From: a virus
Taxonomy: Duplodnaviria; Heunggongvirae; Uroviricota; Caudoviricetes
Length of the DNA stretch: 11,227 nt
Strand: one strand, 5' to 3'
IMG/VR virus record: IMGVR_UViG_2913157538_000006
Below the pieces are notes generated by a model, which worked only from the letters and a program-made list of their open reading frames with translations, was not told the DNA's origin and did not search any database. The first letter of the stretch is position 1; every line of letters begins with the position of its first letter. This document shows, piece after piece, positions 1,757 through 8,320 of the stretch. The position numbers were made by a program, and so were the translations under genes.

Positions 1757-1795
1757 TGATCTTACCCAGCAATAGTGGACACGCGGCTAAGTGAG
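1757..1795. repeat. IS3 left terminal inverted repeat
   Basis: TGATCTTACCCAGCAATAGTGGACACGCGGCTAAGTGAG matches the reverse complement of the right end at about 30 of 39 positions (aligned by eye). Confidence 0.8.
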
Positions 1796-1821
1796 TAAAC
1801 TCTCAGTCAGAGGTGACTCAC

Positions 1822-2121
1822 ATGACAAAAACAGTATCAACCAGTAAAAAACCCCGTAAACAGCATTCGCCTGAATTTCGCAGTGAAGCCCTGAAGCTTG
1901 CTGAACGCATCGGTGTTACTGCCGCAGCCCGTGAACTCAGCCTGTATGAATCACAACTCTACAACTGGCGCAGTAAACAGCAAAATCAGCAGACGTCTTC
2001 TGAACGTGAACTGGAGATGTCTACCGAGATTGCACGTCTCAAACGCCAGCTGGCAGAACGGGATGAAGAGCTGGCTATCCTCCAAAAGGCCGCGACATAC
2101 TTCGCGAAGCGCCTGAAATGA
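1822..2121 (+). CDS. insE: IS3 OrfA (transposase N-terminal, HTH DNA-binding part)
   Basis: ATG at 1822 is preceded by GAGGTG (1810-1815). Product is 99 aa ([32 protein letters not shown] ...) with a leucine-zipper-like C-terminus. The ORF track begins at an upstream GTG (1813); the ATG is the more likely start. Confidence 0.88.
2084..2088 (+). other. Candidate programmed -1 ribosomal frameshift site (A-AAG) for the OrfAB transposase
   Basis: In the orfA frame the codons read CAA AAG (2083-2088). The -1 frame is open from here into orfB. IS3-family frameshifting at A-AAG or A-AAA-AAG motifs is established knowledge; this exact site is inferred, not demonstrated. Confidence 0.5.
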
Positions 2122-2984
2122 AGTATGTCTTTATTGAAAAACATCAGGCTGAGTTCAGCATCAAAGCAATGTGCCGCGTGCTCCGGGTGGCCCGCAGCGG
2201 CTGGTATACGTGGTGTCAGCGGCGGACAAGGATAAGCACGCGTCAGCAGTTCCGCCAACACTGCGACAGCGTTGTCCTCGCGGCTTTTACCCGGTCAAAA
2301 CAGCGTTACGGTGCCCCACGCCTGACGGATGAACTGCGTGCTCAGGGTTACCCCTTTAACGTAAAAACCGTGGCGGCAAGCCTGCGCCGTCAGGGACTGA
2401 GGGCAAAGGCCTCCCGGAAGTTCAGCCCGGTCAGCTACCGCGCACACGGCCTGCCTGTGTCAGAAAATCTGTTGGAGCAGGATTTTTACGCCAGTGGCCC
2501 GAACCAGAAGTGGGCAGGAGACATCACGTACTTACGTACAGATGAAGGCTGGCTGTATCTGGCAGTGGTCATTGACCTGTGGTCACGTGCCGTTATTGGC
2601 TGGTCAATGTCGCCACGCATGACGGCGCAACTGGCCTGCGATGCCCTGCAGATGGCGCTGTGGCGGCGTAAGAGGCCCCGGAACGTTATCGTTCACACGG
2701 ACCGTGGAGGCCAGTACTGTTCAGCAGATTATCAGGCGCAACTGAAGCGGCATAATCTGCGTGGAAGTATGAGCGCAAAAGGTTGCTGCTACGATAATGC
2801 CTGCGTGGAAAGCTTCTTTCATTCGCTGAAAGTGGAATGTATCCATGGAGAACACTTTATCAGCCGGGAAATAATGCGGGCAACGGTGTTTAATTATATC
2901 GAATGTGATTACAATCGGTGGCGGCGGCACAGTTGGTGTGGCGGCCTCAGTCCGGAACAATTTGAAAACAAGAACCTCGCTTAG
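2118..2984 (+). CDS. insF: IS3 OrfB (transposase catalytic DDE domain; normally expressed as an OrfAB fusion)
   Basis: 288-aa ORF in the -1 frame relative to orfA, with ATGA overlap at 2118-2121. Contains an integrase-like catalytic core (WAGDITYL ... [10 protein letters not shown] ... [13 protein letters not shown]). Confidence 0.88.
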
Positions 2985-3014
2985 GCCTGTGTCCATATTA
3001 CGTGGGTAGGATCA
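2976..3014. repeat. IS3 right terminal inverted repeat
   Basis: Reverse complement TGATCCTACCCACGTAATATGGACACAGGCCTAAGCGAG pairs with the left end. Confidence 0.8.
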
Positions 3015-3847
3015 TTGAAGTCATATGAAGTGGAAATCGTTTTCATAAATGACGGCAGCAAAGACGCTACGGAGTCAATCATTAATGCTCTGGCTGTTTC
3101 AGATCCTCTAGTTGTTCCGCTGTCATTTACACGCAACTTTGGTAAAGAACCAGCATTGTTTGCAGGGTTAGACCATGCAACCGGGGATGCGATAATCCCA
3201 ATTGATGTTGACCTGCAAGACCCGATTGAGGTTATTCCTCATCTTATTGAAAAATGGCAAGCAGGTGCTGATATGGTTCTTGCTAAAAGATCTGACCGCT
3301 CAACTGATGGACGCCTGAAGCGAAAAACGGCTGAGTGGTTCTATAAGCTCCACAATAAAATAAGCAATCCTAAAATTGAAGAGAATGTTGGTGATTTCAG
3401 GCTGATGAGCCGTGATGTTGTCGAAAATATTAAACTTATGCCAGAACGAAACCTTTTCATGAAAGGTATTCTGAGCTGGGTAGGAGGAAAGACAGATATT
3501 GTTGAATACGTGCGAGCGGAAAGAATTGCTGGAGATACAAAATTTAATGGATGGAAACTTTGGAATTTAGCACTTGAGGGTATTACAAGCTTTTCCACAT
3601 TCCCTCTTCGCATCTGGACATACATAGGGTTAGTGGTAGCCAGTGTAGCATTTATTTATGGGGCGTGGATGATTTTAGATACTATCATATTTGGAAATGC
3701 TGTTAGGGGATATCCTTCACTACTTGTTTCAATACTGTTTTTAGGTGGAATTCAGATGATTGGAATAGGAGTATTAGGTGAATATATTGGACGCACATAC
3801 ATTGAAACCAAAAAACGCCCGAAATACATCATCAAGAGAGTCAAAAA

Positions 3848-5179
3848 ATGAATAAAGCAATAAAAGTATCATTGTATATATCTTTTGTTTTGATTATTTG
3901 CGCCTTATCTAAAAACATAATGATGTTAAATACATCTGATTTCGGAAGAGCCATTAAGCCATTAATTGAAGACATACCAGCATTTACATATGACTTACCT
4001 TTATTGTATAAATTGAAAGGTCATATTGATTCAATTGATAGCTATGAGTATATAAGTTCATATAGTTATATTTTGTATACATACGTCCTGTTTATTAGCA
4101 TTTTTACTGAATATCTTGATGCTAGGGTGTTATCGTTATTTCTAAAAGTAATATATATTTATTCATTATATGCGATATTTACTTCATATATAAAAACAGA
4201 AAGGTATGTAACTTTATTTACATTCTTTATTTTAGCTTTTCTTATGTGTTCTTCATCAACACTGTCAATGTTTGCATCATTCTATCAAGAGCAAATAGTT
4301 ATAATTTTCCTTCCATTTTTGGTGTATTCATTAACATGCAAAAACAATAAATCTATGCTTTTGCTATTTTTTTCGTTGCTAATAATATCTACTGCTAAAA
4401 ATCAATTTATATTAACCCCACTAATAGTGTATTCATATTATATTTTTTTTGATAGACACAAACTAATTATTAAATCTGTAATATGCGTGGTGTGCTTGCT
4501 TGCGTCAATATTTGCAATATCTTATTCAAAAGGTGTTGTTGAATTAAATAAGTACCATGCAACATACTTCGGTAGTTATCTTTATATGAAAAACAACGGG
4601 TATAAAATGCCATCGTATGTTGATGATAAGTGTGTTGGGTTAGATGCCTGGGGTAATAAATTCGACATATCATTTGGCGCAACCCCAACAGAAGTTGGAA
4701 CGGAATGTTTCGAATCTCATAAAGATGAAACGTTTTCGAATGCACTCTTTTTATTGGTTAGCAAACCAAGCACCATCTTCAAACTTCCATTTGATGATGG
4801 TGTGATGTCTCAGTATAAAGAAAATTATTTCCATGTATATAAAAAACTACACGTAATATATGGAGAATCAAACATACTAACGACTATTACTAACATAAAA
4901 GACAATATATTTAAAAACATTAGATTTATATCATTGTTATTATTTTTTATTGCTTCTATTTTTATTAGAAATAATAAAATAAAGGCATCTTTATTTGTAG
5001 TATCTCTTTTTGGAATATCTCAATTTTATGTGTCATTTTTCGGGGAAGGATATAGAGATTTAAGCAAGCATTTATTTGGAATGTATTTTTCGTTCGACCT
5101 TTGCTTATACATAACAGTCGTTTTTTTAATTTATAAAATAATTCAAAGAAATCAAGACAATAGCGATGTAAAGCACTAA
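3848..5179 (+). CDS. yfdI: Serotype-specific O-antigen glucosyltransferase (GtrS-type polytopic membrane protein)
   Basis: 443-aa strongly hydrophobic, AT-rich ORF with multiple membrane spans and a larger soluble segment. Third gene of a gtr cassette, with ATGA overlap to gtrB at 3848-3851. The symbol is the recalled K-12 locus name. Confidence 0.82.
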
Positions 5180-5187
5180 GTTTAAAT

Positions 5188-5209
5188 TGCGCGCCAATCA
5201 TGGCGCGCA
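5188..5209. terminator. GC-rich hairpin immediately after gtrS (possible bidirectional terminator)
   Basis: TGCGCGCC (5188-5195), 6-nt loop, GGCGCGCA (5202-5209): a perfect 8-bp stem 9 nt past the gtrS stop. There is no clear T-run on the plus strand; a short A/T-rich run follows on the minus strand. Confidence 0.35.
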
Positions 5210-6260: not shown

Positions 6261-6779
6261 TTAACACCCTAATGCGAAAAATGAAGCACCGATACCGGGT
6301 ACGCCTGCTCTGGAAATAAATTTCACCGGGTCCTGGTTATAACCGGCACAAGCTATATAGCCAACATTTGCACTGCCGGGAGTGTAATCCTGAGTCGCAA
6401 ATACCCGCAGACATCTATTCGGAAATGCAATCGGAAAATAGGTTACTGTGTCCTGAGACGTCAGCGGAACATCAATTGGCCCCCATTGAATAATTAAACC
6501 GGATGGCAATTTTTGATATCCAGGAACTGAAGCAGAAAGCATAAAACTACCCATATCAGGTATCTGATTCGCCCCTGTCCCTACATTTCTTTTAGCCGCT
6601 TCTCCCAAACCAAGGTTTTCGAGAGCCTTTTGCACCGTGCCGTCCAATTTGATATCGCCAAACGGATTCTTGCGGCTTAACAGCAGCGCACGAAGCGCGG
6701 TAAGCAGCTGGTCATGCCGCCCCTTCTCCAGGCTGGCACCGGAGGCCTCCACAACGCTGCAAAGCTCCTCCTGCAACAT
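6261..6779 (-). pseudogene. yfdL: Tail fibre protein C-terminal (receptor-binding) fragment
   Basis: 172 aa from an internal Met. The same frame is open further upstream to 6983 with no plausible RBS at 6779, so this is the 3' end of a once larger gene. It is followed by a tfa gene, as in Mu S-U, P2 H-G and e14 stf-tfa pairs. Confidence 0.68.
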
Positions 6780-6828
6780 GTCAAAGTAGTCATCATCCAG
6801 ATCGGTGGCAGGCGTGCCGGTCTGGGGG

Positions 6829-7104
6829 TTACCACGGGTACGGGGGATTACCAAAGGCAGCACCTTTAAGCTCCGCAAGACGTTCTGACCAGTCATGCGC
6901 CAGCGCGTTGTCTTCCGCAGTGTAATACGCGGCACATTTGGCGTTATCACCATCAGTAAACAGATCCAGAACAAACGGGCCAAACAGGGTGTTAATTCCC
7001 CAGAAAATGTTGTCCGGCGTGCGCCACTGATCGCCCACTTCCTTCAGTTCATGGGCTGGTTTGTTCCGCAGCTCCACCAGCGCCTGGCAATATTTATTAC
7101 TCAT
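6829..7104 (-). pseudogene. yfdM: Phage Dam-type N6-adenine DNA methyltransferase, N-terminal fragment truncated just after the NPPY motif
   Basis: Product ends ... [12 protein letters not shown] then stop. NPPY is the catalytic motif IV of N6-adenine methyltransferases, which normally sits mid-protein. Start taken at the Met whose ATG overlaps the yfdN stop (TAATG at 7102-7106); the ORF track extends to an upstream start at 7137. Confidence 0.72.
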
Positions 7105-7598
7105 TAAGCCCCCACGTAATTCCCTGAGAGATACCACTCTTCACCTGATGCAGCCCGCTTACTGCTTTTCCGTAAACACCGTTCACGACGCGCCAGAAAA
7201 TTGTTTCGTTCTGGCTGGGAGTGGCTTTCACGGAATGCCGCCATCCACACCGTTGCAGCACGACGGTATAAGCCCCTGGACTCCAGTTCTTCCGCCTGGC
7301 GGGTCAGGCACAAAATCACCCGCGGGTCGTTAGTGCCGACATAGAAATTGCGCACAGGTCTGGTTTCACGAACTGGTTGTGGTTCCGGATCCTGCGCTCT
7401 CTCAGTCAGGCGCGGGAAATGTCTGTGTGTATCTCCTTCACAACGGTGAGCCACACGCCCACTCTGACGTAACTTGCTTGCTGACTGCAGAACGCGCTGC
7501 CGTGAGTAACCTGCAAAAGCATCCGCAATGTCTCCGGAAGTACAGCCCGGATGGGCTTCAATGAATTTCTGAACGTCATTCAAAAGACTCATGCTCAC
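7104..7598 (-). CDS. yfdN: Hypothetical prophage protein with a PerC-like C-terminal region
   Basis: 164-aa ORF. The segment AEELESRGLYRRAATVWMAAFRESHSQPERNNFLARRERCL resembles the GLWRRAA..W core of PerC/Pch-type regulators as I recall it; this is unverified. Start is ambiguous: GTG at 7598 (AGGA 8 nt upstream) or ATG at 7592. Confidence 0.75.
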   Translation of the reverse strand: MSMSLLNDVQKFIEAHPGCTSGDIADAFAGYSRQRVLQSASKLRQSGRVAHRCEGDTHRHFPRLTERAQDPEPQPVRETRPVRNFYVGTNDPRVILCLTRQAEELESRGLYRRAATVWMAAFRESHSQPERNNFLARRERCLRKSSKRAASGEEWYLSGNYVGA

Positions 7599-7963
7599 CC
7601 CCTGAATCCTGCCGGGATCTGGCTGTAGTCCACATTGTCGTAACTGGCTTTGAAGTACGGGTCTTCGCGTTTTTCTGTGTACGTGCTGACGGACGGCGAT
7701 AAGCGCAGGGAAAGCTCATCCCATTTTTCCCGCAGCTTCGACGGGCTGAGCACGTTACGGCACCAGAACGGATCGCGGCTGACGCGGCTGTACATCTCGC
7801 AGATTTGTTTGTGAGTACGACCATCCTGCACACACATCAGGCGAATTTCGTTTGCCCAGGCTGTCCAGTTCGGTTCTTTGGGACGAACCACCTCGCCGTC
7901 ACATTCGGCGGCCTGCTCGTACAGGGCGATGATTTTTTTCCAGAGCCACTGTGCGCAGGTCAA
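7595..7963 (-). pseudogene. yfdO: Replication initiator (lambda O-like) C-terminal fragment; frame open upstream through the iteron array
   Basis: 122 codons from a TTG at 7963. The same frame has no stop between 8455 and 7598 and no ATG/GTG/TTG upstream of 7963. The O-like assignment is recalled annotation supported by the embedded iterons, not by a search. Confidence 0.65.
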
Positions 7964-8087
7964 ATCATCCTGCGTTCCCCACTGGCGCTTTTTAGGGCTG
8001 AATACAACCGCATCAGGATGGCGAGTTAAAAAATCCTGTTCATCCGTCTGCGTGTCCGGTTGCGAAGCGTCCGGACGAGAAGGTTTT

Positions 8088-8240
8088 TTATCTGACGGAT
8101 CATGTTTTGATTTTACTGACGGATCCCCGCCAGATTCTGACGGGTGAAAACCCGATTTTTTGCCAGATTTCGACGCATCAAATTTTGACGGGTCAGATTT
8201 TGATGCGTCAGATTTTGACGGGTCAGAGTCTGACAGTTGA
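8088..8240. repeat. Iteron-like direct repeat array (about 8 copies, 15-bp period)
   Basis: Five tandem 15-mers at 8166-8240 (GATTTCGACGCATCA, AATTTTGACGGGTCA, GATTTTGATGCGTCA, GATTTTGACGGGTCA, GAGTCTGACAGTTGA), preceded by three more copies with TGACGG cores at 8093, 8117 and 8138. Confidence 0.75.
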
Positions 8241-8320
8241 GAAAATGCCGCTGCCTGAAGCTTCGCAACGTTAAGCTGATAAACATTCGACGCATTGCGG
8301 TTATGATGAGGAGCAGCAAA

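Follow-up and report, generated by a model that had tools for sequence, protein, structure and literature searches.

A two-domain PerC-family protein encoded in the cryptic prophage CPS-53 of Escherichia coli K-12

Could a defective prophage of a laboratory strain supply a regulator of the PerC/Pch type, which is otherwise associated with virulence regulons in pathogenic E. coli? The gene yfdN raises this question. A preliminary description of the sequence had noted a PerC-like motif in the C-terminal half of its product, had proposed that the gene is translationally linked to fragments on either side, and had suggested that the protein could act on host promoters. The window analyzed here, 11,227 nucleotides at its full length, is the cryptic prophage CPS-53 (KpLE1) of E. 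coli K-12, from intS to torI. We asked what kind of protein yfdN encodes, where the gene belongs in intact phages, and what can be expected of it in K-12.

yfdN and its place in the phage early operon

The MG1655 annotation puts yfdN exactly on window positions 7104-7598, minus strand, and the gene is 100% identical to the MG1655 copy, whose RefSeq name is "PerC family transcriptional regulator". The region from 6800 to 8000 likewise shows 100% identity to MG1655 as well as to further K-12 strains, and these 1.2 kb are matched by 2753 of 5426 complete E. coli genomes, so the sequence is a common one. The gene, its junction with the upstream gene and its two neighbors are as follows.

7104-7598, minus strand: yfdN coding sequence, intact; 164 aa from the annotated GTG, with a TAA stop at 7104-7106 (from the list of open reading frames)
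7590-7603, minus strand: junction with the upstream gene, comprising an AGGGGG Shine-Dalgarno-like run, a GTGA stop/start overlap and an alternative ATG at 7590-7592 (read from the sequence)
7595-8302, minus strand: yfdO, remnant of a replication (O-like/primosomal) gene, an open frame throughout that lacks the first 78 codons; PHROG 391; a RefSeq pseudogene, "missing N-terminus"
6838-7104, minus strand: yfdM, remnant of a phage dam gene that keeps codons 1-89 of 217 and is fused to a C-terminal fragment of a tail-fiber gene; a RefSeq pseudogene, "missing C-terminus"

Intact phages carry this gene at a fixed position. The order replication gene, YfdN homologue, dam and downstream nin-region genes is found in four of four (SfV, ST64B, Kati and F1055), and in each the block lies downstream of cro. 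The corresponding loci are orf39-orf40-dam in SfV and sb42-sb43-sb44 in ST64B, and the F1055 homologue is only 45% identical. Among the genes after dam are RusA in SfV, ST64B and F1055 and the Q antiterminator in SfV, ST64B and Kati. YfdN itself is 99.4% identical to the Kati orthologue, 95.7% to SfV orf40 and 69% to ST64B sb43, and PHROG 1324, named "transcriptional activator", matches it along its full length (residues 2-163, E=1e-78). Both this full-length similarity and the position between a replication gene and dam make YfdN an SfV Orf40-like (PHROG 1324) protein, and it is kept as a protein in thousands of sequences, functional phages included. Its orthologues SfV Orf40 and ST64B Sb43 have the same two-domain length, occupy the same place and show the same start/stop overlaps. 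K-12, however, retains only truncated forms of the flanking genes and has lost the rest of the early operon.

The extent of this loss can be measured against the phage genes, and it agrees with the earlier view that both neighbors of yfdN are fragments: the upstream gene keeps residues 79-313 of 313 and the downstream gene residues 1-89 of 217. The yfdO remnant is 99% identical to the corresponding part of the Kati replication protein, and its missing 78 codons hold an HTH_36 DNA-binding domain (residues 17-67 in SfV orf39). The yfdM remnant is 99% identical to residues 1-89 of Kati Dam; it matches TIGR01712, and it covers only positions 3-69 of the 169 in the Pfam Dam model. At the deletion junction (6829-6983), the end of yfdM, near 6838, overlaps a 240-aa open reading frame (6261-6983) with a gp53-like tail-fiber domain at its C-terminus. 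The cI/cro/promoter region is absent in K-12, and yfdP, on the opposite strand, lies beyond the breakpoint. A single deletion appears to have taken everything from mid-dam through the nin region, Q, the lysis and head genes and most of the tail genes. What is left of the early operon is a 1.5-kb remnant in which yfdN is the sole intact gene. A consensus scan of the minus strand from 7600 to 8320 turned up no sigma-70-like site, either directly upstream of yfdN or within the replication-gene remnant, and an Rfam scan of the whole window returned no RNA family at threshold.

The proposed translational linkage of yfdN to yfdO and to the methylase fragment is visible in the overlapping codons. The TGA stop of the upstream remnant (7595-7597) overlaps the annotated yfdN GTG as GTGA and is separated by 2 nt from the alternative ATG at 7592 that comes after it, and the yfdN TAA (7104-7106) shares one base with the ATG of the methylase remnant (TAATG). 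The spacing in SfV is identical: orf39 ends at 3998, orf40 is at 4001-4489 and dam starts at 4489. The annotated GTG (7598) has no spacer from the AGGGGG run. A 5-nt spacer separates this run from the ATG at 7592, and SfV and Kati both annotate an ATG start for the orthologue, which yields 162 aa. For these two reasons the ATG is the likelier start, and the K-12 gene has probably been annotated with two codons too many, the true product then being 162 aa.

The replication-gene remnant also contains five iteron-like direct repeats (8116-8238) with 15-bp spacing and a consensus of about CAGATTTTGACGGGT. They overlap inverted repeats and encode a repetitive SD(P/A)SKSD peptide stretch. Their arrangement resembles that of the lambda origin inside gene O, and they probably represent the origin of the phage, which no longer has a complete initiator.

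The PerC core and the domain architecture of YfdN

The predicted domains of YfdN and the elements of its PerC core are located as follows.

7413-7598, minus strand: predicted N-terminal winged-helix domain (residues 1-62), three helices and a beta hairpin
7341-7406, minus strand: predicted disordered linker (residues 65-86), pLDDT below 50; poorly conserved, in a variable, gap-containing stretch of the family alignment
7146-7301, minus strand: PerC core (residues 100-151), aligned with positions 5-56 of the 90 in PF06069; lies in helices 92-107, 111-124 and 128-150, pLDDT about 90
7233-7274, minus strand: motif GLYRRAATVWMAAF (residues 109-122), spanning the turn from helix 1 to helix 2 and the first part of helix 2
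7173-7190, minus strand: motif RRERCL (residues 137-142), in helix 3

Both stretches that had been quoted as PerC-like, GLYRRAATVWMAAF and RRERCL, are present in the C-terminal half of YfdN, and they belong to a conserved core. In a Pfam profile search, PF06069 (PerC) matched residues 100-151 with 36.1 bits (E=8.1e-9), which is 13.5 bits above the gathering score of 22.6 bits; the SfV orthologue scores 38.9 bits. BLASTP aligned YfdN with PerC of the EPEC E2348/69 plasmid pMAR2 at 37% identity over 46 aa (E=1e-6). When the C-terminus of YfdN was aligned with PerC of pMAR2, with PchA and PchE of O157:H7 Sakai and with five short homologues, eight residues were invariant: A102, L105, G109, R113, A114, A115, R138 and C141. 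Six of the eight fall inside the two motifs, with G109, R113, A114 and A115 in the first and R138 and C141 in the second. Moreover, the motifs lie in confidently predicted helices (pLDDT near 90) and not in disordered, unconserved sequence. Both the profile score above the gathering cut-off and the conserved core residues thus place YfdN in the PerC family, and the resemblance is, as a matter of sequence, well above chance. The idea of a fortuitous likeness in an unrelated or non-coding reading frame can draw on the shortness of the match (about 50 residues) and on the modest identity to PerC, but the comparisons have already refuted it and leave it practically no probability: the score clears a curated threshold by a wide number of bits (E=8e-9), the frame is conserved as a protein across thousands of sequences and functional phages, and the C-terminal match recurs in relatives of 25-47% identity, six of seven of them above threshold.

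One further source of the motif was considered and set aside. The pattern G-x-Y-x-x-A-x-x-x-W may allow a TPR-like reading. An origin in a repeat family was suggested by P0200, a 462-aa protein with six matching stretches; it is an unrelated tandem-repeat protein of secreted type, and its matches were taken as chance.

The AlphaFold2 model of YfdN (mean pLDDT 76.6) contains two confident domains, although it was built on a shallow alignment of 18 sequences. Its C-terminal domain consists of the three helices listed above, of which the first two and the start of the third form the conserved PerC-family core. The N-terminal domain gave matches to winged-helix folds, and DNA binding by this domain is predicted from the model. 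Sequence profiles are less telling for this part of the protein: a profile scan of YfdN itself gave no Pfam match to the N-terminal domain, a PHROG MarR match is weak (E=5.5e-5), and MarR_2, with a cut-off of 27, reaches 19.6 bits in the SfV orthologue. A sequence comparison with the PDB gave no chain that matches YfdN at E values up to 10.

An exhaustive search of 1.84 billion representatives yielded 99 relatives, including full-length two-domain proteins at 25-47% identity, and the two-domain form persists at identities as low as about 25%. The C-terminal PerC match was present in all seven two-domain relatives that were scanned, and it exceeded the Pfam threshold in six. Several of the scanned relatives also have MarR/HTH_24-type matches at the N-terminus, one of which exceeds threshold. 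The existence of two-domain relatives this distant argues that the combination of a predicted winged helix with a PerC core defines a stable subfamily and is no accident of K-12.

A Ren-like origin of the N-terminal domain was also considered, prompted by a weak PHROG 142 (Ren-like) match and by the place of the gene after the replication gene, where lambda has ren. The match has E=0.0047 with no single stretch passing, so that YfdN does not count as Ren-like, and hhalign against the Ren-like protein ECs_1613 gave a probability of 0.4%.

YfdN beside the PerC, Pch and ANR proteins

PerC of EPEC (pMAR2/pEAF), the founder of PF06069, shares with YfdN the core A..LE..G(L/F)YRRAA..W...(R/K)R..C(L/I).KS, and both proteins are encoded on mobile elements. 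The same core and invariant residues are found in PchA/B/C and PchE of EHEC O157:H7 Sakai, which are encoded by prophages or islands. However, PerC is an 89-aa single-domain protein with its core starting from residue 6 and a PF06069 score of 143 bits, as compared to 36 bits for YfdN, and PchA (104 aa) and PchE (90 aa) are likewise single-domain proteins that match the full model with 149-153 bits. PerC, PchA and PchE thus cover model positions 1-89 or 1-90 (143-153 bits), whereas YfdN covers only positions 5-56, has about 90 extra N-terminal residues (predicted winged helix and linker) and lacks the C-terminal segment of PerC and Pch. If the PerC/Pch type is defined narrowly, as a single domain of about 90-104 aa that matches the whole 90-position model, then YfdN falls outside it. 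YfdN is a divergent two-domain member of the PerC family, not a PerC/Pch-type protein.

The genomic settings differ as well. The sites of pchA and pchE are unlike each other, and neither is in an early operon, unlike that of yfdN. In Sakai, pchA is a reverse-oriented gene next to IS629 in the lysis/late region of the lambdoid prophage Sp4. The pchE gene lies in Sp7, a small primase-carrying element of 15 kb with an integrase, a primase and head/packaging genes and without tail genes, an organization like that of the phage-inducible chromosomal islands described in a 2025 chromosomal-island paper.

A second family bears on the core. The ANR proteins (e.g., Aar; NF033650) contain a short helical hairpin whose sequence is detectably similar to the PerC core of YfdN and also to that of PerC itself, and they act as anti-activators through protein-protein contact. 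NCBIfam ANR_neg_reg (NF033650) matches YfdN residues 98-144 (window 7167-7307) with E=3.7e-5 and 23.5-24.3 bits, and it matches canonical PerC of pMAR2 with E=0.0017 and 18.2 bits. Both scores are under the cut-off of 32 bits, and membership in the ANR family was therefore rejected for both proteins and the match kept as a remote resemblance. It points to a remote relationship between the PerC and ANR hairpins; the 2025 chromosomal-island paper had already remarked on the resemblance.

What does this imply for the activity of YfdN? The family assignment made in the preliminary description stands, supported by PF06069, by the invariant residues and by the predicted helices. Its extension to host or virulence promoters, however, finds no support: of the PerC model, YfdN has only the first half, set in a different architecture, and membership in the PerC family does not predict activation of LEE1. 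PerC activates LEE1, but PchD is without effect on ler and the effect of PchE is less than 2-fold (Uhlich et al. 2018, PMC5931665). PerC-like genes of EDL933 and CFT073 islands have no LEE1 effect, and EcCIMP1_025 represses LEE1 (chromosomal-island paper, 2025). A literature search found no evidence of YfdN action on host promoters, no functional tests on SfV Orf40, ST64B Sb43 or PHROG 1324 members, and, apart from one overexpression phenotype, no experiments on the function of YfdN or SfV Orf40. That phenotype, the only one found for YfdN, is the glycogen deficiency of the yfdN overexpression clone of the ASKA library. YfdN can thus perturb the cell when forced, but the effect is not specific.

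We consider it probable that yfdN is the lone intact gene of an SfV-like early-right (replication/nin) remnant, encoding a two-domain PerC-family phage transcription factor that persists in K-12 as a stranded passenger. In an intact phage the gene would be transcribed from the early rightward promoter, it would be translationally coupled to the replication gene and dam, and its product would act as a phage-encoded transcription factor. The winged helix would supply DNA binding, and the PerC-type hairpin may supply an effector contact, for which H-NS-type nucleoid complexes or another regulator are the most plausible partners. Such contacts have been proposed for Pch, from ChIP and H-NS displacement, and for ANR proteins, although Fukui et al. 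(2016) report that they could not co-precipitate H-NS with PchA. In K-12, expression of yfdN is probably low because the prophage has lost the repressor/cro/promoter region and the start of the replication gene, although this expectation depends on a consensus promoter scan and read-through or weak internal promoters are possible. The K-12 gene would hence be a stranded passenger, not a working host regulator.

It is conceivable, although we regard it as rather unlikely, that the YfdN/Orf40 type constitutes a distinct class of phage early regulators in which a sequence-specific winged helix is fused to a minimal PerC/ANR-type hairpin. If this were true, then the hairpin of about 50 residues would be a portable protein-interaction module directed at H-NS-type silencing complexes or partner regulators, rather than an element that binds DNA. 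The mode of action of PerC and Pch proteins would then be easier to explain, given that they are described as without homology to known DNA-binding proteins (Fukui et al. 2016). K-12 YfdN could then modulate H-NS-silenced genes when expressed.

Alternatively, YfdN might work like PerC and PchABC, activating H-NS-silenced host or horizontally acquired promoters in trans, and to this we give a low probability. In its favor are the shared core and invariant residues and the finding that Pch de-represses H-NS-silenced promoters and also binds regions of the K-12 backbone (Fukui et al. 2016). [quoted passage not shown] Nevertheless, YfdN lacks the C-terminal third that is common to PerC, PchA and PchE, and even members that match the full model range from activators to inactive proteins and one repressor, as seen above. 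Moreover, the EHEC LEE1 promoter was active in K-12 only with pch supplied (Fukui et al. 2016); as K-12 carries yfdN, the native gene is therefore no substitute for pch. There is also no evident promoter for yfdN in K-12.

Still less probable, in our estimation, is that the C-terminal hairpin is an ANR-type anti-activator that contacts and inhibits an AraC-family regulator or H-NS, which would make YfdN a negative regulator. The ANR_neg_reg matches to YfdN and PerC are consistent with such a role, AraC-type activators and H-NS are both targets of ANR proteins through protein contact, and the repressor of LEE1 encoded by the island EcCIMP1 is a PerC-family protein whose authors noted ANR matches and proposed this mode of action (chromosomal-island paper, 2025). 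However, the scores of 23.5 bits (YfdN) and 18.2 bits (PerC) fall short of the cut-off, and ANR proteins are small, single-domain and usually encoded beside an AraC-family gene, whereas no such gene adjoins the yfdN homologues in SfV, ST64B, Kati or F1055.

Returning to YfdN as a phage early factor, its assignment to the PerC family is correct but already known, being the standard annotation and in use in the EHEC literature. RefSeq applies the name "PerC family transcriptional regulator" to K-12 yfdN and to thousands of homologues, phage records call the orthologue either this or "transcriptional activator", and the ST64B annotation cites b2357 (yfdN) as a relative of sb43. As a discovery, then, yfdN matters little. 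What the present analysis adds is modest: YfdN matches only part of the PerC model, has a predicted winged-helix domain and is encoded at a fixed place in the phages. The family name overstates the likeness of YfdN to PerC, and extrapolation from the virulence regulators is unsafe because only the first half of the PerC model is shared, behind a predicted winged-helix domain. On the other hand, the conserved two-domain form at a fixed site in SfV-like phages offers a tractable system for the role of the PerC core hairpin.

Composition and an insertion element elsewhere in the window

The G+C content is very low (25-34%) between 3600 and 5200, across yfdI, a putative serotype-specific gtr gene, as compared to 54-56% in yfdM, yfdN and yfdO. 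Composition is thus mosaic within the element, and the stretch from 3600 to 5200 is a likely H-NS target. An IS3 element of 1258 bp (1757-3014; orfA/orfB at 1813-2984) interrupts yfdH/gtrB and is flanked by a 3-bp target duplication, TTG, at 1754-1756 and 3015-3017. In MG1655 yfdH is intact. The window therefore derives from the K-12 sub-lineage marked by this insertion, which is common to 55 complete genomes, including those of C600, RV308, GM4792 and NEB Turbo.
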